Assembly (NCBI GenBank): GCA_036480595.1
Contig: JAZGGS010000494.1
Coordinates: 1-43,525, forward strand
DNA: 43,525 bases
Direction: 5' to 3'
Source of the DNA: Ignavibacteriaceae bacterium
Lineage (GTDB): Bacteria > Bacteroidota > Ignavibacteria > Ignavibacteriales > Ignavibacteriaceae
The position numbers and the translations under genes are program-made. Below the pieces are notes generated by a model. It saw only the letters and a list, made by a program, of their open reading frames with translations. It made no database searches and was not told the origin of the DNA. Below are positions 3,518 to 43,525 of this stretch, piece by piece. Positions within the stretch are counted from its first letter, which is position 1; each line of letters starts with the position of its first letter.

Positions 3518-4468
3518 ATGAGCGATTTACAAAAAATCAAAACAGAAACATTAGAGCCTGTTAAGCCAATAATGACAAAGATGGGCATTTCGTCAGAACG
3601 CTTTTACAAAGAAGCTGGATTTGTGTGTCAAATTTGGAATGATCCTAAAAATAGCTATTTAAGAAATTCAACCAAAGAAAGCTTATTAAGCGCCGTTGCT
3701 TCGATAGCACAAACAGGATTAACATTAAATCCGGTCGCAAAACAAGCTTATCTTATTCCCAGGAAAATAAAAGATGGTAAAAACTGGATTACACAGGCAC
3801 ATCTTGAGCCCTCATATATTGGATTAATGAAGTTGCTCACAGATGCCGGTCAGGTTTTAAATCTTCAAACCAATTTGGTTTATGAAGGAGATGAATTTGA
3901 TGTTAATTTAGGCATGGAAACCCATATTACTCATAAACCACATTACATAACAGGCCAGAAAAAAGGAGACATAAAAGGCGTTTATTCCATTGCTAATATC
4001 AAAGGAGGATTAAAGCAATTTGAATATATGACAATTCAGGAAATCCATGAAATCAGAGGGACATCCGAAAGTTATAAAGTCTGGGAAAAGAATCATGATA
4101 TACCATGCGTATGGATAAAATACGAAGGTGAGATGATTAGAAAGACTTGTATTAAAAGAATTTCAAAACACTTACCAAGGTCAGAACAATTTGATTACGC
4201 GGATAATTTAAGTAATAAGGATTTTGAAATGACCTTCAGTCAAATTACATATATTGAAGCTTTATTACATTCATCTTCATTGCCGGAATCGATGAAAGAA
4301 GACCTTGAAAATCAACTTGGTGCAATGACATACGCGGACGCTAAAAAGACGATTGAATATTTAAAAGAAAATCAAAATATAAAGATTTTAGATGACATCA
4401 ACAGGCCGGCTCATTTGGGCCCCACTGAAGCGACAAAAGAATTTGACCGTAAATTACAGGAGGATTAA
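3518..4468 (+). CDS. recT: RecT-family single-strand annealing recombinase
   Basis: 316 aa. The protein contains ...SLLSAVASIAQTGLTLNPVAKQAYLIPR..., EPSYIGLMKLL, VYEGDEF, IKGVYS and MIRKTCIKRISKHLP, which match my recollection of the RecT family pattern. Confidence 0.8.
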   Translation: MSDLQKIKTETLEPVKPIMTKMGISSERFYKEAGFVCQIWNDPKNSYLRNSTKESLLSAVASIAQTGLTLNPVAKQAYLIPRKIKDGKNWITQAHLEPSYIGLMKLLTDAGQVLNLQTNLVYEGDEFDVNLGMETHITHKPHYITGQKKGDIKGVYSIANIKGGLKQFEYMTIQEIHEIRGTSESYKVWEKNHDIPCVWIKYEGEMIRKTCIKRISKHLPRSEQFDYADNLSNKDFEMTFSQITYIEALLHSSSLPESMKEDLENQLGAMTYADAKKTIEYLKENQNIKILDDINRPAHLGPTEATKEFDRKLQED

Positions 4469-4500
4469 TATTTAAACCAGAATAACACAAATCAAATAAT

Positions 4501-4914
4501 ATGCTTTACGATTTCAAAAAGGATTTTGATATTGAAATGTATAATAAGCGATCAAAAGAACTTATTGAAAAAAAAGCTATTGTCGATCTGAGGCAAAAAA
4601 GAGGGAAAAGAACTTTATCACAAAATTCATACCTTCATGTCTGCATAAATATGTACGCAATATTTGTAGGTGAAACATTGAACAGAACTAAAACAGATTT
4701 AAAGCGTGATTGTTCATTTATGGTTGAAGAATACAAAGGAAAAAAATACTTGATTAGTTCATCTGATTTGAATACTAAAGAATTGACTAATTGGATCGAA
4801 TGGATTAGAAACAAAGCTTCGGTAGATGGTGTATTTATCCCTTCACCTGATGATTACAGAAGAAATTGGGCTAAATATGAAAAAGAAATACAATCCTGTA
4901 AACCTTATTTATAA
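4501..4914 (+). CDS. ninB: NinB/Orf-like recombination mediator (putative)
   Basis: RTLSQNSYLHVCI resembles lambda NinB RSLDQNRKLWACL. The gene sits between recT and rusA. Confidence 0.5.
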   Translation: MLYDFKKDFDIEMYNKRSKELIEKKAIVDLRQKRGKRTLSQNSYLHVCINMYAIFVGETLNRTKTDLKRDCSFMVEEYKGKKYLISSSDLNTKELTNWIEWIRNKASVDGVFIPSPDDYRRNWAKYEKEIQSCKPYL

Positions 4915-5309
4915 TGAAAACTATGAGAACGATAACAGGAAAAATATATATTCATCCTATACCAGCATCCAGGCCAAGAGTTGTGAAAAAACGAGCCTAC
5001 ACAGAACCAAAATATTCAACATACAAAATAGCCTTGACGTATTTACTGAAGAATGAAAGAATACCAAAACAAGACTATGAAAGCATAAAAGTAGTTTTTG
5101 CAATTCCATACTCAAAAGGCATAGCTAAAAAACGAAAGATCCAAGGTAAAGCACACCGACAAAAACCTGACATTGATAATTTTATAAAAGGTTTTATGGA
5201 TGCTTTAGAGCAGTCCGGGATAATTCAAAACGATTCACAAATATGCAATGTACACGCTTTTAAGTTATTTGACTGTCAACAGGGTTACATTGAGTTTGAA
5301 TTAAAATAG
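4914..5309 (+). CDS. rusA: RusA-family Holliday junction resolvase
   Basis: IPASRPRV near the N-terminus, KPDIDNFIKGFMDAL and IIQNDSQI fit the catalytic Asp pattern of RusA. The start overlaps the upstream stop (TAATG). Confidence 0.8.
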   Translation: MKTMRTITGKIYIHPIPASRPRVVKKRAYTEPKYSTYKIALTYLLKNERIPKQDYESIKVVFAIPYSKGIAKKRKIQGKAHRQKPDIDNFIKGFMDALEQSGIIQNDSQICNVHAFKLFDCQQGYIEFELK

Positions 5310-5364
5310 GTCTAAAATCAAGGTAAAACAACTTTCAAAATCTAAAATGTTTAAAGTATAAATC

Positions 5365-5742
5365 ATGAATACACTAACTCAGTTAAGTAGAAAAATTAAT
5401 GAATTTGTAAAGTCAATCGGATTCGATAATAATGATGTTCCCTTAAGAATAGCATTAATTCATACTGAAATATCAGAAGCATTTGAAGCATTTAGAAAAG
5501 ATAAATATGCCGATACAAAGCAATTTAAGGATGAGATAAAAAATTGGTCACAACATGATGAAGATTACAAGGGCATTTTTGAAAGCAATATTAAGGATAC
5601 GTTTGAGGATGAAATTGCAGACAGTATTATTCGTCTGTTAGATTTATGTGGAAAACGAAATATCGATATTGATTTTTTCATTGAGCAGAAAATGAAATAT
5701 AATTCAATGAGAGGTTACAAATATGGAGGCAAAAAATTCTAA
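5365..5742 (+). CDS. MazG-like nucleoside triphosphate pyrophosphohydrolase
   Basis: ALIHTEISEAFEAFRK ... EDEIADSIIRLLDLC ... KMKYN is the EExxE/D all-alpha NTP-PPase pattern. Confidence 0.7.
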   Translation: MNTLTQLSRKINEFVKSIGFDNNDVPLRIALIHTEISEAFEAFRKDKYADTKQFKDEIKNWSQHDEDYKGIFESNIKDTFEDEIADSIIRLLDLCGKRNIDIDFFIEQKMKYNSMRGYKYGGKKF

Positions 5743-5919: not shown

Positions 5920-6288
5920 ATGACAACAAAATTTCGCGCCTGGGATAAGAAAGAAAAAAGATTTATTCAGCATGTTCATTTAAACGACGATGGATCTGTT
6001 AGCTTTTTAAATTCAGAAGCATTATGGCAATTTGATGAAGATGAACGGCTCATTATTCAATTTTATATCGGACTAACGAGTTCTAATAATGAAGAATGGT
6101 ATGTCTCTGATATTGGTGAATTTCCAAATGGTGATAAATTTATTTTAAAAGAAGAAGATTGGTTAGAAGTTTTTGCGGACTGGATTGGTGATCCTGAATG
6201 TGAAGAACAAACAAAGGAGTTATATAGAATTGAAAATGCAAAAAAAATAGGCAATTATTTTGAAAACAAAAACTTACTTGAATCATGA
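5920..6288 (+). CDS. YopX-like protein
   Basis: The N-terminal KFRAWDKKEKRF and the segment IQFYIGLTSSNNEEWYVSDIGEF resemble the YopX family. Confidence 0.55.
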   Translation: MTTKFRAWDKKEKRFIQHVHLNDDGSVSFLNSEALWQFDEDERLIIQFYIGLTSSNNEEWYVSDIGEFPNGDKFILKEEDWLEVFADWIGDPECEEQTKELYRIENAKKIGNYFENKNLLES

Positions 6289-6512
6289 AAAACTCAACAC
6301 TTAACAGTTTAGATGAAATCTATGATATAATCAAACGACCTCCAGAACAGGAATCAATCAGAATACTCTCGCCTTATAAGCAGCGGATCTTTACAGAACT
6401 ACATGGATTATCCGGGGAGGCTGACCAGGACAAATTGAAAGAAGCCAGACCGGAACAATTAAAAAAAGTTAACTGGGTTATGAAAACAAAACTAACCTCG
6501 GATGATTCGTGA
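6285..6512 (+). CDS. Hypothetical protein (75 aa)
   Basis: Track ORF with ATGA/GTGA overlaps at both ends. Confidence 0.65.
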   Translation: MKNSTLNSLDEIYDIIKRPPEQESIRILSPYKQRIFTELHGLSGEADQDKLKEARPEQLKKVNWVMKTKLTSDDS

Positions 6513-7258
6513 TCTTACGAAGACTTGGAAATAAATCAAAGTTAGCTGAGAAGATACAGTATTATTTTCCTCCGCACAAAATTTATATTGAACCATTTTT
6601 TGGTGCCGGTGGCATGTTTTTTAATAAGCCAAAAGCAAAATACAATATTGTTAATGATTTGGATTCGGATGTATTTAATTTATTCCAAGTTGTCATGAAT
6701 CAAAAAGAAGAATTAGAAAAAGCGTTTTATATTATGCCTATCCATTCGGACTTACTGGAGTATTGGAAAAAGAACAAGGAAATAGATCCGATAAAAAAGG
6801 CTTTGAGATTTTTGTTTTTAAGTAATTTTACTTTTATGGGCACTGGCGAACAAATGAGAACTAGAGGCGATAACGTAAAGATAGATTTTTACAAATATAT
6901 CAACTCCACTTTTGAACTATTATCTGACGTGAATTTTTCAAATAAGGATGCAGGTATATTTTTAGGGTCTATTGAATATAGGGGCGGCGAATTTATTTAT
7001 AACGATGGCCCTTATCTCGGAACAAACGATAACTATTCAAATTCATTCACAGAACAAGACTCTTTTGACCTATTCGAAGCAAACCAGAAAACAGGCTGTA
7101 AATGGGCTATGTCAGAGTTTAACCATCCATTTATTTTAGATCAGGCAAAGCAAAGAAACCTTAATGTGATTATTATTGGAGAAAGGCAGAATCTAAAAAA
7201 TCGTAGAATTGAAATATTAGTAACTAATTATGAAAATAATCAATTGAATATATTTTGA
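6509..7258 (+). CDS. dam: Dam-like (D12 class) DNA N6-adenine methyltransferase with atypical DGPY catalytic tetrad
   Basis: GTG start overlapping the upstream TGA. GNKSKLAEKI, YIEPFFGAGGMFFNK (FxGxG) and IVNDLDSDVFNLF are present. Motif IV reads NDGPY (7011-7025) instead of DPPY. Confidence 0.75.
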   Translation: MILRRLGNKSKLAEKIQYYFPPHKIYIEPFFGAGGMFFNKPKAKYNIVNDLDSDVFNLFQVVMNQKEELEKAFYIMPIHSDLLEYWKKNKEIDPIKKALRFLFLSNFTFMGTGEQMRTRGDNVKIDFYKYINSTFELLSDVNFSNKDAGIFLGSIEYRGGEFIYNDGPYLGTNDNYSNSFTEQDSFDLFEANQKTGCKWAMSEFNHPFILDQAKQRNLNVIIIGERQNLKNRRIEILVTNYENNQLNIF

Positions 7259-7300
7259 TCAATGGATGAACAAATTAAAAGGTAAACAAAACCGGATAAA

Positions 7301-7320
7301 CTTTTTTGGTAAGTAAATAA
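7301..7320 (+). repeat. 20-nt direct repeat CTTTTTTGGTAAGTAAATAA, copy 1
   Basis: An identical copy lies at 7654-7673. Together they bracket ORF 7328-7651. Confidence 0.9.
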
Positions 7321-7327
7321 AAAGTCT

Positions 7328-7651
7328 ATGAAAAAAATAGGAGTCATAAAATCAAATGCAATAATCAGACAAATTCAAGGATTTGGATACAATTATTCAA
7401 AACAAAGAATTATCTGGGATAGCAAAACCTGTGCCTGGAATTGGATTATTATTAAATGGGGAATACGAAATTCAGATAAACTACAAAGATTTCCAATACG
7501 GAATATGAGTAATAATTGTAAGAGGTCGTTAATATTTGGTTTAGGATTATGGTATTTTCAATTAACATATCATAGAAAAAAATCATTTAATCAGAATAGA
7601 AAATTGTTATTCCGAAAAAAATTATGGAAGGTTTATCAATTAATTAGTTAA
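7328..7651 (+). CDS. Doubtful ORF (107 aa; basic, rich in Trp, Ile and Lys)
   Basis: It is the only long ORF between the two repeats, but its composition looks like an off-frame product. Another frame gives the more protein-like stretch ...GIAKPVPGIGLLLNGEYEIQINYKDFQYGI*, which has no start codon. Confidence 0.3.
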   Translation: MKKIGVIKSNAIIRQIQGFGYNYSKQRIIWDSKTCAWNWIIIKWGIRNSDKLQRFPIRNMSNNCKRSLIFGLGLWYFQLTYHRKKSFNQNRKLLFRKKLWKVYQLIS

Positions 7652-7653
7652 AC

Positions 7654-7673
7654 CTTTTTTGGTAAGTAAATAA
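7654..7673 (+). repeat. 20-nt direct repeat CTTTTTTGGTAAGTAAATAA, copy 2
   Basis: Identical to 7301-7320, starting 3 nt after the stop of ORF 7328-7651. Confidence 0.9.
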
Positions 7674-7686
7674 TGTTTAATAATTG

Positions 7687-7717
7687 TTTGATAGTAAGTT
7701 TACATTGTGTACATTTG
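7687..7717 (+). promoter_or_regulatory. Bacteroidota-type promoter candidate overlapped by a dyad operator
   Basis: TTTG (7687-7690), a 19-nt spacer, then TACATTTG (7710-7717, an exact TAnnTTTG). The dyad TACAttgTGTA (7701-7711) overlaps the box. The ATG at 7722 lies only 4 nt downstream. Confidence 0.5.
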
Positions 7718-7721
7718 ATCT

Positions 7722-7868
7722 ATGGAAGGGTTTAAAAATTATATGACAATTCAGGAATATATGAAATTTCATAAGATTTCAAGGCAGACAGTTTATAATA
7801 AAATTAACGCCGGTGAATTGATCGTTAAAAAGTGGCTTACTAGAACTTTGGTTAAAAAGGCTGCTTAA
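7722..7868 (+). CDS. Small helix-turn-helix DNA-binding protein (excisionase/MerR-like HTH, 48 aa)
   Basis: Hand translation MEGFKNYMTIQEYMKFHKISRQTVYNKINAGELIVKKWLTRTLVKKAA. ISRQTVYNKINAGEL is a typical HTH recognition segment. The ORF is below the track cutoff. Confidence 0.65.
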   Translation: MEGFKNYMTIQEYMKFHKISRQTVYNKINAGELIVKKWLTRTLVKKAA

Positions 7869-7889
7869 TATTTTTTTCTCTAACATATA

Positions 7890-7900
7890 TACAATGTGTA
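7890..7900. promoter_or_regulatory. Second copy of the TACAnnnTGTA dyad
   Basis: TACAATGTGTA differs by one base from TACATTGTGTA at 7701-7711. It lies just downstream of the HTH gene and upstream of ORF 7920. Confidence 0.4.
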
Positions 7901-7919
7901 AAAATTTAAACATGAAACA

Positions 7920-8204
7920 ATGGAAGAAACAATTTGGAAATTTGAATTAGAAACAACAGAGGATCAAAAAATTGAAATGCCTGTAAATGCGAAAATACTA
8001 ACAGTGCAATCTCAAGATGAAATACCTTGTTTGTGGGCATTAGTTGACCCATCAGCAAAGAAAGAAATAAGACTTTTTGAGGTGTTTGGTACTGGACACC
8101 CTGTCGGTTATGACATGGGAGTGAATAGAAATTATATAGGCACTTACCAATTGCAAAATGGAGCTTTAGTATTTCACGTTTTTGAATATACGGGCAATTT
8201 GTAA
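7920..8204 (+). CDS. Conserved hypothetical phage protein (94 aa)
   Basis: Track ORF. The KFEL...MPVNAKILTVQ...LWALVDP...FGTGHPV...YIGTYQ...VFHVFE pattern is one I recall from a widespread phage family of unknown function. Confidence 0.7.
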   Translation: MEETIWKFELETTEDQKIEMPVNAKILTVQSQDEIPCLWALVDPSAKKEIRLFEVFGTGHPVGYDMGVNRNYIGTYQLQNGALVFHVFEYTGNL

Positions 8205-8231
8205 TGACCTATTCGGATAAACTAAAAGACC
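8203..8231 (+). repeat. 29-nt boundary repeat AATGACCTATTCNGATAAACTAAAAGAYC, copy 1 (mini-ORF 8204-8236, MTYSDKLKDQ)
   Basis: It starts in the upstream stop (TAATG). The mini-ORF stop overlaps the next ATG (AATGA). Confidence 0.9.
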
Positions 8232-8232
8232 A

Positions 8233-8574
8233 ATGAAAGAATCATTAGAGCCGGTTTATAGATGTGATCATTGTAATAAGGCAATGAGAAGTAAAGGTGC
8301 AATGGCATTACATGAAAGAATGTGCAAAAGCAATCCTAAAAATGATCATAAATGCTTTCAATATTGCGTATTTTTAAATAAGGGGATTGATAATTCAAAT
8401 GGATCAAGATATTTTGATTGCGGAAACGTAAAATCTAAATTTTATTCAAATGATTTATATAGCTATAAATTAGAGCGTTTCTGTTTTAACCAAGAAAGAA
8501 TCAGTAAAATGACTAGGATGCCATTAAAATGTGATCATTATCAAATTGAAAATGGACATGAACCTTTTGATTAA
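8233..8574 (+). CDS. Zinc-finger protein (C-x2-C-x12-H-x3-C), 113 aa
   Basis: YRCDHCNKAMRSKGAMALHERMC, plus further Cys/His residues downstream. Confidence 0.65.
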   Translation: MKESLEPVYRCDHCNKAMRSKGAMALHERMCKSNPKNDHKCFQYCVFLNKGIDNSNGSRYFDCGNVKSKFYSNDLYSYKLERFCFNQERISKMTRMPLKCDHYQIENGHEPFD

Positions 8575-8601
8575 TGACCTATTCAGATAAACTAAAAGAT
8601 C
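8573..8601 (+). repeat. 29-nt boundary repeat, copy 2 (mini-ORF 8574-8606, MTYSDKLKDQ)
   Basis: It differs from copy 1 only at TCG>TCA and GAC>GAT. Both are synonymous third positions of the mini-ORF. Confidence 0.9.
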
Positions 8602-8610
8602 AATGAAGCC

Positions 8611-8838
8611 ATGAAAATCAAATTAATATTTAAAACATACGACACGTGGATAGGGACATTTGATAAATATGATAGAGCATATAATAGGTGTTACGTATTC
8701 ATCTTTTTTATTCCCTGGCTTGGATTAGAGGTTAGTTACCCTAAAAAGGGTTATATGTTGCTTTTTTGGAAAGTATGGCCAGCTTTAACAGGGATATTGA
8801 TCTGGGTTGGGTGGATGTATTTAATGTGGCGTATTTAA
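8611..8838 (+). CDS. Hypothetical membrane protein (75 aa)
   Basis: Track ORF with two hydrophobic, Trp-rich segments. Confidence 0.6.
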   Translation: MKIKLIFKTYDTWIGTFDKYDRAYNRCYVFIFFIPWLGLEVSYPKKGYMLLFWKVWPALTGILIWVGWMYLMWRI

Positions 8839-8867
8839 AATGACCTATTCCGATAAACTAAAAGACC
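8839..8867 (+). repeat. 29-nt boundary repeat, copy 3 (mini-ORF 8840-8881, MTYSDKLKDPRWQ)
   Basis: Same 29-mer, with TCC at the Ser codon. It sits immediately upstream of the HNH gene but in a different frame. Confidence 0.9.
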
Positions 8868-8882
8868 CCAGGTGGCAATAAA

Positions 8883-9164
8883 ATGACATTACCGAGAACA
8901 ACATTTAATAAAAAATTCAATACACAGCATGGTAGATGTTTATATTGTGGCTGCAATTTGAATAATTGTAGAATAGAGATTGATCACAAAATACCATTCT
9001 CAAAATCAAAAGACGGTAGAAATTCAAATTTGTGGTTAGTTTGTTATGACTGCAATAGACAAAAATCTGATAAATATATTTATGAATTTAAGATATTTAT
9101 TGATGAGAATCATCCAGAAAAATTAATACGTGGTATGTTTTATTTTGAATTTATTGGCATATAA
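8883..9164 (+). CDS. HNH endonuclease
   Basis: CLYCGC...IEIDHKIPFSKSKDGRNSNLWLVCYDCNRQKSDK carries the HNH / CxxC...H...N...CxxC signature. Confidence 0.85.
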   Translation: MTLPRTTFNKKFNTQHGRCLYCGCNLNNCRIEIDHKIPFSKSKDGRNSNLWLVCYDCNRQKSDKYIYEFKIFIDENHPEKLIRGMFYFEFIGI

Positions 9165-9166
9165 AA

Positions 9167-9835
9167 ATGGCTAAAGACGCTTACTATTTTTCTCATGATA
9201 GTAACTCAAGAAACGATGAGAAAATATTGTCATTGCGGATGAAATTAGGCATGGAGGGATACGGAATATATTGGGCAATCATTGAGATGTTGAGAGATTC
9301 AACTGATTACAGAATGCAATTGCAATGCGAACGCATAGCATTCGAATTGCACACGGATAACGAAACTATAAAAAGCGTAATAAATGATTTTAATTTGTTT
9401 GATAATGATACTGAATATTTTTGGTCAGAAAGTCTTTTAAGAAGAATGGAAATAAGAGAGCAAAAGTCAAATAAAGCACGTGAGAGCGCAAAAGTAAGAT
9501 GGGATAAAGCGAAAGCAATGCGAACGCAAAGCGAACGCAATGCAAAGAAAGGAAAGGAAATTAAAGAAAAAGAAATAAAAGGAAATAAAAAAACAGAAAA
9601 TAATATACCCGATTTTGAAGAGTTTTTAATTTATGCAAAAACAATAGAAATATATCATTCAAGTTTCGACTTTCAAATTAAAACAAAATATGATACTTGG
9701 GTGGACGATAAATGGAAAACAGGAGTAGGAAAAAAAATAATTAATTGGAAAAATACATTAAGAAGTACAATGCCGTATTTTCAAAAAGATTTATCTCAAA
9801 TTGAAAAACAAGATTATACTCAAAAAGTATTATGA
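9167..9835 (+). CDS. DUF4373-type (Lin1244/Lin1753-like N-terminal domain) replication-associated protein
   Basis: AYYFSHDSNSRNDEKILSLRMKLGMEGYGIYWAIIEMLRD is the N-terminal signature of that family. The centre of the protein is rich in Lys and Glu. Confidence 0.65.
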   Translation: MAKDAYYFSHDSNSRNDEKILSLRMKLGMEGYGIYWAIIEMLRDSTDYRMQLQCERIAFELHTDNETIKSVINDFNLFDNDTEYFWSESLLRRMEIREQKSNKARESAKVRWDKAKAMRTQSERNAKKGKEIKEKEIKGNKKTENNIPDFEEFLIYAKTIEIYHSSFDFQIKTKYDTWVDDKWKTGVGKKIINWKNTLRSTMPYFQKDLSQIEKQDYTQKVL

Positions 9836-10017
9836 AGGGAATAAAAATAATTTATAAGAACAATAAACCTTATGGTATTAGAGATACTGGAGGATTTTTA
9901 TTTTTTTTCACAAAAATATCAAAATGGACAGGTCAGGAGGAAAGATACAGAAAAGAAATTGAAGAACAATTTAAACTTGCCGACTATTTATGTGAGTCTT
10001 TAAAAACAAGATTATGA
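9832..10017 (+). CDS. Hypothetical protein (61 aa)
   Basis: Track ORF with ATGA overlaps at both ends. Confidence 0.6.
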   Translation: MKGIKIIYKNNKPYGIRDTGGFLFFFTKISKWTGQEERYRKEIEEQFKLADYLCESLKTRL

Positions 10018-10718
10018 AACAAGCGCACCAACATTTACAATCAGGGAACACATATTATGATTTGATTAATAGTCATATCAATACTTTAGTCGAGCGATGG
10101 AACGCATCCCATACCAGGCAAACAGATCCTAAAATAATAGGCGAAGCTTTCAAAAGAATTTTTGAATATCACAAATGGATTTCAATTGATGACATTAAGC
10201 CGGCTATTGACCTGGGATTGATGGGTAAGTTTGGAGAAAACAAAGGATTAAATTCTGAAACTATTTTCAAATGGTTTACCGGATATTCAAATTCAATCAG
10301 AAGTCAGGAATTAAAAAGCCATTCTGCCTACCATACCAAAGATACTTTTATTCCTCATGAACAAAGAAGGCAAACCAGGAAAGAACTTATTGAAATCTTC
10401 ATGACATTTTATAAAGAATATCAAGAGACGCAAGTTTTCAACAGCAAAATGAATCATTATGTGCCTGTATTTTTCCGATGGTTCCGTAAGTTAAAATTCA
10501 TTGAAATAAGTGATGAAAAAGAATTGAGGTTAGCTGAAAGTGAAAGTGAATCACTAAGAAGCTTGAGAACTTTGTTTAGTAAGAAACCAGATTCAAAAGC
10601 GACCCATACAATCAGAAGATTATTTTTAGACGCCTTCAAATTGGCAGCAAATAATGATTACGAAATTGAAGAACAATTAAACTCACTTAGTCATGGTTTT
10701 AAAAGAAGTATTTTATAA
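10014..10718 (+). CDS. Hypothetical protein (234 aa), possibly replication-associated by position
   Basis: Track ORF following the DUF4373 gene. No motif recognised. Confidence 0.7.
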   Translation: MKQAHQHLQSGNTYYDLINSHINTLVERWNASHTRQTDPKIIGEAFKRIFEYHKWISIDDIKPAIDLGLMGKFGENKGLNSETIFKWFTGYSNSIRSQELKSHSAYHTKDTFIPHEQRRQTRKELIEIFMTFYKEYQETQVFNSKMNHYVPVFFRWFRKLKFIEISDEKELRLAESESESLRSLRTLFSKKPDSKATHTIRRLFLDAFKLAANNDYEIEEQLNSLSHGFKRSIL

Positions 10719-10872
10719 GAAACCGAAAATAAAATATGTGGATGAGAAATGTCCTAATTGTAAAACTAAAACATTGGTACAAGGACAGATACCATGTCCA
10801 GATAATAAAGCAGGTTGCTCGGTATTACATTGGGGATTACGATGCATGAAATGTGGTAAGATATATTCATAA
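10693..10872 (+). CDS. Zinc-ribbon protein (59 aa)
   Basis: Hand translation MVLKEVFYKKPKIKYVDEKCPNCKTKTLVQGQIPCPDNKAGCSVLHWGLRCMKCGKIYS shows two CxxC pairs. It is preferred over the antisense track ORF 10713-10901. Confidence 0.55.
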   Translation: MVLKEVFYKKPKIKYVDEKCPNCKTKTLVQGQIPCPDNKAGCSVLHWGLRCMKCGKIYS

Positions 10873-10908
10873 TGAAAGAAATTATTTCCATATAAACTCA
10901 CTTAAATT

Positions 10909-11115
10909 ATGAAACCTGAAGAAGTAAATAATAAAACGGTACGGGAACTGAGGAATGAATATGCAGAATTAAATATTAAAATGCTTGATATTTTAAATAA
11001 ATTTAAAGACCAGAATGAATCAATTTTACAATTTCCAACAGAAATAAGATTCTATTTATCGGAAACGGATAATTATGAAAGATACTATATGTATTTTAAG
11101 TTAGAATTGAAATGA
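10909..11115 (+). CDS. Hypothetical protein (68 aa)
   Basis: Track ORF. Confidence 0.6.
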   Translation: MKPEEVNNKTVRELRNEYAELNIKMLDILNKFKDQNESILQFPTEIRFYLSETDNYERYYMYFKLELK

Positions 11116-41246: not shown

Positions 41247-41274
41247 AGCCTTGTATATTGCAGGGCTTTTTTTA
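41247..41274 (+). terminator. Rho-independent terminator ending the late/lysis operon
   Basis: AGCCTTG (41247-41253) pairs with CAGGGCT (41261-41267) over 7 bp including one G-U pair. A T-run of seven follows. Confidence 0.7.
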
Positions 41275-41297
41275 TTTGATTAATTTGTTTATATTTG
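41275..41297 (+). promoter_or_regulatory. Promoter candidate, module copy 1
   Basis: TTTG occurs at 41275-41278 and 41284-41287. TATATTTG at 41290-41297 is an exact TAnnTTTG. The terminator-plus-promoter block is duplicated at 42557-42591. Confidence 0.45.
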
Positions 41298-41307
41298 TTT
41301 TATGATA

Positions 41308-41383
41308 CCGTGCATATCTAAAAATATAAGTTTTATAATATTACCACCTGAAGAGATGCACGGCTCTGATGGTGGTTTTTTTA
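41308..41383 (+). promoter_or_regulatory. Promoter-proximal leader with overlapping hairpins, one terminator-like
   Basis: Helix 1 pairs CCGTGCAT-A-TCT (41308-41319) with AGA-G-ATGCACGG (41352-41363). Helix 2 pairs ACCACC (41343-41348) with GGTGGT (41371-41376) and is followed by a run of T residues. The 5' arm of helix 2 lies inside the loop of helix 1. Confidence 0.45.
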
Positions 41384-42543: not shown

Positions 42544-42566
42544 GCCTCATTATGTGGGGCTTTTTT
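42544..42566 (+). terminator. Rho-independent terminator after the DUF5131 gene
   Basis: GCCTCA (42544-42549) pairs with TGGGGC (42555-42560) over 6 bp including one G-U pair. A run of six T residues follows. Confidence 0.55.
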
Positions 42567-42567
42567 A

Positions 42568-42591
42568 TTTGGTATAATTTGTTTACATTTG
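42568..42591 (+). promoter_or_regulatory. Promoter candidate, module copy 2
   Basis: TTTG occurs at 42568-42571 and 42578-42581. TACATTTG at 42584-42591 is an exact TAnnTTTG. Confidence 0.45.
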
Positions 42592-42596
42592 ATATA

Positions 42597-42689
42597 TAAA
42601 AACGGAGATGATAAGCCCTAAAAAGGCGCTTTGCTAGACACATAGTTTATTTGATGAATTAGGGATGCCGCCTTGGCTCCCTTTTTTTT
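42597..42689 (+). ncRNA. Candidate small non-coding RNA (about 95 nt, promoter to terminator)
   Basis: The segment lies between the TAnnTTTG box and a strong terminator. The only ORF inside is 9 codons (MISPKKALC). Confidence 0.35.
42662..42689 (+). terminator. Rho-independent terminator
   Basis: GGGATGCC (42662-42669) pairs with GGCTCCC (42675-42681) with one bulged T. A run of eight T residues follows. Confidence 0.7.
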
Positions 42690-42735: not shown

Positions 42736-42740
42736 CACAT

Positions 42741-42766
42741 GATTAATAATATTAATTATACTATTT
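42741..42766 (+). promoter_or_regulatory. Third copy of the 17-bp operator-like element, with a weak -7-like box
   Basis: GATTAATAATATTAATT (42741-42757), then TACTATTT (42759-42766). The leader AAACTAAAAATTAGCA (42787-42802) follows. Confidence 0.4.
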
Positions 42767-42804
42767 TTACTTAACAATTAGGAATTAAACTAAAAATTAG
42801 CAAG

Positions 42805-42948: not shown

Positions 42949-43525
42949 ATTACTTGATTTATATTGTGGAGGTGGAGGATCTTCGTATGGATATGAACTT
43001 GCTGGTTGGGATGTTACAGGCGTTGACATCATTCCACAATCAAAATATAAGGGTAGGTTTATACAATCCGATGCAATAGAATATTTGCGTAATAATTACA
43101 ATATGTTTGATGTAATCAGTGCCAGTCCTCCATGCCAGCAATATAGTACTTCATCAATGCAATTTAGAATAGACGGCAAAAGATATGATGATTTGATAGG
43201 TATTACAAGAATAGAATTAATTAAAACAAAACTCCCTTATGTTATTGAAAACGTCCCGGGAGCACCATTAATAAATCCTATTATATTATGTGGTTCAATG
43301 TTTGGGTTGAAAACATACCGTCATAGATTGTTTGAAAGCAATATTAATTTAAAGGCCCCGGCACATCCGAAACATGAAAATATTAATGCAAAAATGGGGA
43401 GAAGACCAAAAAAAGATGAATACATCCAATACATGGGACATTTTTCAGGCGTTAAAATGGTTCAAGATATGACTGGACTTTATTGGTTAGGACAAAAGGA
43501 ACTCGCTCAAAGTATTCCACCTCAA
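42941..43525 (+). CDS. dcm: DNA cytosine-C5 methyltransferase, N-terminal part (continues at 128-199 after the junction; about 218 aa in total)
   Basis: DLYCGGGGSSYG is motif I, SASPPCQQYS is motif IV (PC) and VIENVPG is motif VI (ENV). The ORF is open to the window end and is not in the track because it is truncated. Confidence 0.85.
   Translation, partial: MNKLLDLYCGGGGSSYGYELAGWDVTGVDIIPQSKYKGRFIQSDAIEYLRNNYNMFDVISASPPCQQYSTSSMQFRIDGKRYDDLIGITRIELIKTKLPYVIENVPGAPLINPIILCGSMFGLKTYRHRLFESNINLKAPAHPKHENINAKMGRRPKKDEYIQYMGHFSGVKMVQDMTGLYWLGQKELAQSIPPQ
43399..43525. repeat. Second copy of the 127-nt terminal overlap
   Basis: Identical to 1-127. Confidence 0.95.

Follow-up and report, generated by a model that had tools for sequence, protein, structure and literature searches.

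What are three copies of a short repeat doing between the genes of a phage-like genome? The genome in question is a metagenome contig of 43,525 nucleotides (nt) from an Ignavibacteriaceae bacterium (GenBank assembly GCA_036480595.1, contig JAZGGS010000494.1); the whole stretch is referred to below as the window. In it, a run of small genes leading up to a replication initiator gene is punctuated by three copies of a 29-nt repeat, AATGACCTATTCNGATAAACTAAAAGAYC, each standing at a gene boundary and each opening a very short open reading frame (mini-ORF). From sequence comparisons, we conclude that the repeats are the 5' end of a free-standing HNH endonuclease gene (MTYSDKLKDPRWQKKR... type). They are probably recombination scars of this sporadic and apparently mobile gene. 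Repeat-mediated duplication and the replacement of cassettes would have multiplied them, and today they form spacers linked stop-to-start with the genes on either side.

The copies lie at 8203-8231, 8573-8601 and 8839-8867 on the forward strand, exactly where the original prediction had placed them, and no other copy was found in the window when up to three mismatches were allowed. In 100 dinucleotide-preserving shuffles there was no match at all, so that chance is no plausible source of three copies. They are also very unlikely to be an assembly artefact, because the copies differ from one another, their flanks are unique, and the repeats are much shorter than the terminal overlap of the window, an exact direct repeat of 127 nt (1-127 and 43399-43525). 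At about 43.4 kb, the window represents a phage-like genome that was assembled as a circle. It consists of a single metagenome contig: exact-protein look-ups of its genes matched only the source contig, GCA_044344285.1, and its DNA similarity to Cellulophaga and Olleya phages is weak.

The repeat sequence makes up the whole of three intergenic spacers, of 28, 36 and 44 nt, in a run where other neighbouring genes share 4 nt or are separated by 2 nt (Table 1). Copies 1 and 2 are alike over 36 nt, up to and including CAATGAA. The stop/start geometry proved to be as first described. The stop codon of the DUF7352 gene overlaps the ATG of mini-ORF 1 (8204-8236, MTYSDKLKDQ*) in the sequence TAATG, and the stop of mini-ORF 1 overlaps the ATG of the zinc-finger gene in ATGA. 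The zinc-finger stop in turn overlaps the ATG of mini-ORF 2 (8574-8606, again MTYSDKLKDQ*) in TAATG. After mini-ORF 2 comes a vestigial ORF of three codons (8603-8614, MKP*), the stop of which overlaps the ATG of the membrane gene; the junctions of copy 2 read TAATG, ATGA and ATGA. One base separates the membrane-gene stop from the ATG of mini-ORF 3 (8840-8881, MTYSDKLKDPRWQ*), giving TAAAATG, a string found on both sides of copy 3, and mini-ORF 3 is, as had been stated, in a different frame from the HNH gene that starts at 8883. Each mini-ORF is in stop/start contact or near-contact on both sides, as expected of a relay ORF, and all ORFs from 7920 to 9835 are linked stop-to-start.

The parent of the repeat could be found through its peptide. 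In tblastn searches, the mini-ORF peptide matched the N-terminus of an annotated HNH endonuclease of Pseudanabaena phage Pan5 (gp49, MALTYKEKLLDPRWQKKRLEI...) and that of an unannotated ORF of Acinetobacter phage Abp95. A codon-degenerate pattern of the repeat picked out 12 viral or metagenomic loci, and a shorter pattern eight more; 11 of the 12 carry genes whose products start exactly MTYSDKLKDP(R/K)WQ, ten of them complete (104-190 amino acids, aa) and one ending at a contig edge. Beyond this N-terminus the proteins continue CxxC...LH(V/I)HH...CxxCH, and the name HNH1 is used here for proteins that start MTYSDKLKDPRWQKKRLEI... and carry CxxC...HVHH...CxxCH. Altogether, about 20 full-length HNH1 genes (104-190 aa) on metagenomic phage contigs share the mini-ORF start, both as peptide and as DNA; with the two genes of cultured phages, they bear out the HNH endonuclease N-terminus that the original prediction had proposed for MTYSDKLKDPRWQ. 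HNH1 proteins belong to phrog_119, 'HNH endonuclease', in PHROGs (E from 1.7e-15 to 2.9e-12) and give sub-threshold matches in Pfam; no relative was found in the PDB by sequence, and no paper with the motif PRWQKKR in a limited search of the literature. Codons 1-9 of copies 1 and 2, and codons 1-13 of copy 3, are identical to those of intact HNH1 genes of 104-190 aa. When seven full-length HNH1 proteins were used as tblastn queries against the whole window, only the three truncated 5' ends, hereafter 'stubs', were matched. The repeat thus derives from an HNH gene that is no longer in the window.

This gene is not the one that follows copy 3. The repeat had been taken for the original 5' end of that gene, HNH2 in Table 1; an HNH gene is indeed its source, but HNH2 belongs to a different family and bears no significant similarity to HNH1 (BLASTP, E = 0.97). 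Relatives of HNH2 at 58% identity lie directly upstream of a replication-type gene and have no stub upstream, for which reason the idea of stub 3 and HNH2 as an old unit was rejected. The database search proposed for the repeat gave a divided answer: the exact 29-mer core had no match in IMG/VR, and the degenerate pattern and the peptide led to the HNH1 genes. A decayed-junction pattern, CATTCAGATAAANAAGACTATG, was likewise without a match in IMG/VR. Among 185,579 species genomes, the full-length repeat pattern was not found, and the shorter degenerate pattern gave at least 120 matches, all to unrelated YSDKLKD proteins (for example, M3 peptidases) and none to HNH1.

The only differences among the three copies, TCG/TCA/TCC and GAC/GAT/GAC, are all synonymous in the mini-ORF, as had been noticed at the outset. 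Since 15 of the 81 possible changes are synonymous, P is about 0.006 for three synonymous-only differences under a uniform neutral model. This pattern is as compatible with an origin of the differences inside a live, selected HNH1 gene as it is with selection on the mini-ORF.

An HNH1-type gene is present in only one of 17 Obolenskvirus genomes, that of Abp95, and homology among these genomes stops exactly at the gene start. Such a sporadic distribution is that expected of a free-standing mobile gene, and HNH1 is apparently mobile. Its surroundings are varied. In Abp95 (MZ618622.1, L089) it is an unannotated DPRWQKKR-type HNH ORF of about 185 aa (about 1495-2060), placed between a small gene and a replication initiation gene. 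On the high-GC contigs L091, L094, L097, L098 and L099, a full-length HNH1 gene starts right after a GC-rich hairpin and T-run that resemble a terminator, so that HNH1 also appears to occupy transcription-unit boundaries in unrelated phages.

The closest relatives of the array were then compared slot by slot around the zinc-finger gene, and they retain earlier states of the locus. In L108 (ERR13063745; zinc-finger identity 68%) there is no stub upstream of the zinc-finger gene, only its native flank, ...AAACAATGAAAG; downstream, an intact 123-aa HNH1 overlaps the zinc-finger stop, and in the gene after HNH1 the C-terminal 80 aa are 55% identical to the replication protein of the window. L254 (ERZ940452; 77%) has a decayed stub upstream, ATTCAGATAAAAAAGACTATGAAAG (p < 0.0005), and downstream a 16-codon stub, MTYSDKLKDPRWQKKR followed by RAKFLFK*, that overlaps the zinc-finger stop. 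In L106 (SRR24269683; 73%), the gene before the zinc-finger gene ends in a partial stub that has become part of it (...KIYSDKL*, p = 0.0015), and another stub, ATG ACA TAT TAA (MTY*), lies one gene further upstream; on the downstream side come ATAAA-TAAAAGATCAA (p = 0.001), a 53-aa helix-turn-helix gene, and then an intact HNH1. L107, L255 and L109 (72%, 73% and 69%) have no stub either upstream or downstream. At the orthologous position, then, HNH1 is intact in L108, intact one gene further on in L106, and replaced by a longer stub in L254; next to the zinc-finger gene, it is present, truncated or absent across L108, L254, L107, L255 and L109. L102 (SDBT01670519.1), a contig without the zinc-finger gene, has an intact 27-mer that begins within a stop codon and breaks off after GAC, right before the next ATG; a decayed copy lies one gene upstream.

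Between the stub and the HNH1 5' end there is a membrane gene in the window, a helix-turn-helix gene in L106 and nothing in L108. The ...GAYCAA junction is common to the window and L106, and the genes after it differ. Gene content therefore varies at the repeat boundaries among relatives. The original prediction had cassettes being inserted at the repeat and proposed such an alignment as a check: gain or loss of genes there is indeed what L108, L254 and L106 display. The ends of the stubs fall into two classes. Internal stubs end at nt 27-28 and abut the start of the next gene (copies 1 and 2 of the window, the L102 stub, the upstream stub of L254 and the downstream stub of L106); terminal stubs, where HNH1 was destroyed, end elsewhere, at nt 40 in the window and at about nt 48 in L254.

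The sequences of the stubs themselves give some indication of their history. In stub 2, the 22 nt TATTCAGATAAACTAAAAGATC are identical (22/22) to the live HNH1 gene of L108. Over the first 40 nt of its alignment with the L254 stub, which continues past the breakpoint, stub 3 is identical at 38 positions; compared with the intact L108 gene, it is identical at 31 of 33 nt, from TATTC to TGGCAA. Codon 2 is ACC in all three copies of the window and ACA, ACG or AAA in the relatives; this window-specific codon implies that the three copies descend from one resident allele or were homogenised. In the stub-less L108, CAATGAAAG, which follows stub 1 in the window, is the native 5' flank and start of the zinc-finger gene. 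Stub 2 is thus a copy of stub 1 together with the first bases of the zinc-finger gene, and it carries the signature of a stub-plus-gene duplication followed by replacement of the duplicated gene body. For the same reason, the idea that copies 1 and 2 were derived from copy 3 by a 9-nt in-frame deletion of PRW was dropped.

The array has a narrow distribution. Neither stubs nor the DPRWQ motif were found in 87 loci related via DUF7352 or replication genes. Stubs were also absent from 33 IMG/VR loci with zinc-finger homologs, one of which had an HNH1 gene 2.3 kb away, and from 27 IMG/VR loci matching the shorter pattern; these last two results confine the phenomenon to one small clade.

From these states, we infer the following history. 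In the ancestor, HNH1 would have stood between the zinc-finger gene and the replication gene, as it does in L108 today. Illegitimate recombination in the HNH1 5' end would have created a first stub upstream of the zinc-finger gene, the internal stubs being cut after nt 28 and fused to the region in which the following gene starts. Stub and live HNH1 5' end would then have formed 28-nt direct repeats flanking the zinc-finger gene, and recombination between them, within one genome or with co-infecting relatives, would have duplicated or exchanged the unit. RecT could do this. Genes for RecT and RusA lie upstream of the array (about 3900-5400), so that the phage has recombination functions of its own, and recombinases of the RecT type act on homologies of about 28 nt. 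The duplicated gene copy would later have been replaced by other small genes, the membrane gene in the window and the helix-turn-helix gene in L106. Finally, HNH1 would have been cut after codon 13 and joined to the HNH2-replication module; HNH2-type genes are found directly before replication-type genes elsewhere too. The best reading of the stubs is that they are scars and no dedicated recombination site, and their stop-to-start linkage may help to explain why they are intact in the window.

Several points weigh against this history. The closest relatives are short contigs (0.9-2 kb), in which the arrays are seen only partly. The stubs of the window are pristine, whereas the orthologous stubs of L254 and L106 have decayed and the zinc-finger proteins there are only 73-77% identical to that of the window, so that recent gene conversion or selection would be required. 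The synonymous-only differences may point to a mini-ORF under selection and not to neutral scars. The common end of the internal stubs at nt 27-28 would be explained more directly by a site-specific break than by one ancestral stub. Lastly, stub 2 has a TCA...GAT state that matches the live L108 allele over 22 nt, and a simple unequal crossover with stub 1 is a poor fit.

Another reading is that the stubs have been retained for a function in translation. Ribosomes ending on an upstream gene would start again at the mini-ORF and, from there, at the next gene, the A-rich, unstructured stub serving as a portable leader in a host lineage with little use of Shine-Dalgarno sequences, such as the Bacteroidota. 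The window itself offers several points in favour of such a relay: a stop/start overlap or a 1-nt gap at every junction from 8204 to 8883, the MKP* ORF included; 4-nt overlaps between other genes of the run; differences among copies that are synonymous only; and spacers that are A-rich and unstructured, folding no better than shuffled sequences (z = +0.8, -0.15 and +2.1). A scan for promoters and terminators found no enrichment and none in the stubs, with a sigma-70 consensus that may not fit a Bacteroidota host. The relatives argue otherwise. Their mini-ORF is broken, being cut to MTY* or fused to the preceding gene in L106 and deprived of its ATG upstream in L254, and in L102 the stub ORF extends 14 nt into the next gene; an origin in live HNH1 would be expected to leave a synonymous-only pattern as well. 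Termination-reinitiation coupling, which the original prediction had offered as its second choice, thus agrees with the geometry of the window genome but not with the lack of conservation, and we regard it as unlikely to be the reason why the repeats are retained.

A lower probability still is given to a nuclease-driven capture of genes, comparable in outcome to that of integrons. A break at about nt 28 of HNH1, made by HNH1 itself or by another nuclease, would leave a stub-ended left end able to invade the stub or HNH1 5' end of a co-infecting relative, copy the upstream neighbour gene and the HNH1 5' end, and anneal back. With each event, the region just upstream of HNH1 would gain one gene and one stub; the array would function like an integron without recombinase or attC, its anchor having been lost later in the window and being still live in L106. 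This would account for the common end of the internal stubs at nt 27-28, compared with nt 40 and about 48 for the terminal ones, and for the variable cassette that L106 has between stub and live HNH1, in an interval that is empty in L108; HNH1 is, moreover, as sporadic as a homing endonuclease gene. The common end point can also be explained by descent, given that the upstream stub of L254 is orthologous to copy 1 and that the ...GAYCAA junction occurs both in the window and in L106. Against capture stand, too, the confinement of the stubs to one small clade, the lack of a live HNH1 in the window, and the absence of this HNH type from the PDB and of its motif from the literature searched. The pristine stubs of the window and the common end at nt 27-28 nevertheless keep capture in consideration, improbable as it is; if true, site-specific capture would give viruses a new route of gene acquisition.

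Three separate invasions of adjacent intergenic sites by HNH1, each decayed to its 5' end, are harder to accept than either of the above. It is true that the gene type is sporadic and free-standing, that the state of HNH1 in the same slot differs among relatives, and that every stub begins within the preceding stop codon or 1 nt past it, like the intact genes in L108 and L254. Copies 1 and 2 nevertheless share their cut point and 8 nt beyond it, all copies have the window-specific ACC codon, and the cuts are clean, without a degraded gene body, where gradual independent decay would have given different results. That the three direct repeats, which adjoin a replication initiator gene, might be DNA-binding sites (origin iterons, or operators for the replication, helix-turn-helix or zinc-finger proteins) is highly improbable, as their spacing of 370 and 266 bp is unlike that of clustered iterons, their sequence is fully explained as HNH1 coding sequence, they decay in relatives, and the clustered GCGAACGCA-type repeats at 9313-9351 and 9506-9555, inside the replication initiator gene, are better candidates for origin iterons.

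Table 1. Coordinates of the stubs, the genes between them and the flanking genes in the window
Feature	Position	Strand	Remarks
Possible fourth, decayed stub	7471..7490	+	TTCAGATAAACTAcAAAGAT, inside a doubtful 107-aa ORF
DUF7352 gene (upstream flank)	7920..8204	+	Stop overlaps the ATG of stub 1
Stub 1	8203..8231	+	Initial 28 nt of an HNH1-type gene, from its ATG at 8204, with the A before it; whole DUF7352/zinc-finger spacer
Cassette gene 1, 113-aa Cys/His-rich, zinc-finger-like protein	8233..8574	+	Anchor for synteny with L106, L108 and L254
Stub 2	8573..8609	+	First 28 nt of an HNH1-type gene and CAATGAAG (duplicate of the zinc-finger start region)
Cassette gene 2, 75-aa hydrophobic (membrane) protein	8611..8838	+	
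Stub 3 (terminal)	8839..8881	+	40 nt of HNH1 5' homology to 8878, through TGGCAA (codon 13), then TAA
HNH2, resident HNH endonuclease	8883..9164	+	PF13395/PF01844, PHROG 2118
Lin1244_N-type replication initiation protein (downstream flank)	9167..9835	+	

The 113-aa zinc-finger protein has no match in Pfam or PHROG. It has 41 homologs, in which C11, C14, H27, H39, C41, C45, C63 and C100 are invariant and C31 nearly so; these residues suggest a multi-zinc-binding fold. This phage family adjoins HNH1 genes or stubs only in the closest clade of the window. The 75-aa membrane protein is likewise without a match in Pfam or PHROG; a word-indexed search returned only the protein of the window, and an exhaustive HMMER search of 1.84 billion representatives gave three remote homologs, with identities of 51%, 41% and 53%; the third match was partial. 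The membrane ORF was considered as a decayed HNH1 body or as a duplicate of the zinc-finger gene; both were rejected, as tblastn finds just three stubs and one zinc-finger gene, and remote homologs exist. An apparent similarity of the membrane protein to an ORF of L102 was not significant. Upstream, the relatives of DUF7352 in IMG/VR (L081-L087) have other genes downstream, without a stub. The wider neighbourhood (6285-11115) encodes a methyltransferase, a helix-turn-helix protein, DUF7352, HNH, the replication protein and proteins of no assigned function.

The possible fourth stub consists of an exact 13-mer and AAAGAT with one base inserted. The 13-mer alone would be expected about 0.007 times in the window (a composition-based estimate), and the relatives give no confirmation of this stub. 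It lies in a 463-nt stretch, 7259-7721, where the doubtful ORF is the only one. Copies of a direct repeat of some 24 nt, TAAAC(C)TTTTTTGGTAAGTAAATAA, border the stretch (about 7297-7320 and 7649-7673), which may represent a non-coding element or else a cassette that has decayed. In the relatives, a conserved non-coding element of about 190 nt is found just upstream of genes (630-830 in L102, about 60-260 in L254 and about 740-960 in L109). It has a 12-bp closing helix, AATAATTACCTG...CAGGTAATTATT, and folds only marginally better than shuffled sequences (z = -1.9); Rfam had no match in the window, L102, L254 or L109. In L254, two stub-like pieces flank the element, as if it were itself a cassette.

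Phage genomes are mosaics whose joints are rarely visible. Here, the stubs mark the places where small genes were duplicated, replaced or added. This suggests that the short, highly conserved start of a free-standing HNH gene that is itself widespread can act as a portable patch of homology, at which gene modules could be exchanged between otherwise unrelated phages. Similar arrays may be searched for by a simple signature: a gene spacer in which the first codons of an HNH gene run into a premature stop.

How does this array compare with known systems? The closest in origin are the free-standing homing endonuclease genes of phages, such as the seg and mob genes of T4-type phages, which go through a cycle of invasion, fixation, degeneration and loss. 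HNH1 would fit this pattern: it is a small nuclease gene placed between genes with a stop/start overlap, present or absent in close relatives, and found as truncated remnants; we regard it as a putative homing endonuclease gene. What differs is that the remnants, rather than being one pseudogene, are three clean, near-identical 5' stubs in successive slots; every one of them is a gene boundary, and two have a common cut. HNH genes have also been described as variable or mobile genes of phages (PMC7468147). A limited literature search found no description of tandem HNH 5' stubs as cassette boundaries.

Integrons (intI, attI and attC) also have tandem, single, promoterless genes, a repeated boundary element, and a cassette content that differs between relatives. 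Here, by contrast, no integrase was found among the genes at 6285-11115 or in the upstream RecT/RusA region, the part of the window that was scanned, and the neighbouring genes encode no recombinase, in particular no tyrosine recombinase. The 28-nt direct repeat has no attC-like imperfect palindrome, and no inverted repeat or hairpin was detected in or around the stubs. Moreover, the stub repeat is a gene fragment that stands 5' of each gene, whereas attC forms the 3' ends of cassettes. The array is thus not an integron, and the proposal of an HNH nuclease acting in place of the integrase was not borne out.

Two other systems share the position of the repeats. Phage operons contain translationally coupled, overlapping genes and short relay ORFs that work by termination-reinitiation, and TAATG or ATGA overlaps chain every ORF of the present run; the mini-ORF is, however, a fossil of another gene and is unconserved in relatives, and the coupling in this run is a predicted one. 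The SAS and ESAS of cluster K mycobacteriophages are conserved short sequences directly upstream of several start codons. They resemble the stubs as short repeats beside gene starts, but are genome-wide, regulatory and non-coding in origin, while those of the window are three, local, and from an HNH 5' end.

In behaviour, the nearest described analogue is the PeSL elements, the 'mobile regulatory cassettes' of T4-type phages, which consist of a promoter and a stem-loop terminator (Arbiol et al. 2010, PMC2839356; PMC4122927). Recombination between these repeats has been proposed to shuffle, delete, duplicate and circularise single-gene modules, with mini-circles as products (PMC2839356). In both cases, short repeats bound small, mostly ORFan genes in a plastic region, and content differs at the repeats between relatives; unlike PeSL, the stubs have neither promoter nor stem-loop, lie inside one tightly coupled transcription unit and are derived from coding sequence. 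The window has other boundary-type repeats, around genes of 60-76 aa (215-280, 493-529 and 42737-42802; 746-805 and 996-1055; 41263-41310 and 42557-42604). One of these is a promoter-like unit ending in AAACATAAAAATTAGCA just before ATGs, and another a 60-nt unit, 95% identical between copies, with a GC-rich hairpin and T-run resembling a terminator; those at 215-1055 and 42.5-42.8 kb look more PeSL-like than the HNH stubs do. The tandem HNH 5' stubs are thus related both to the known remnants of homing endonuclease genes and to the shuffling of genes at boundary repeats.

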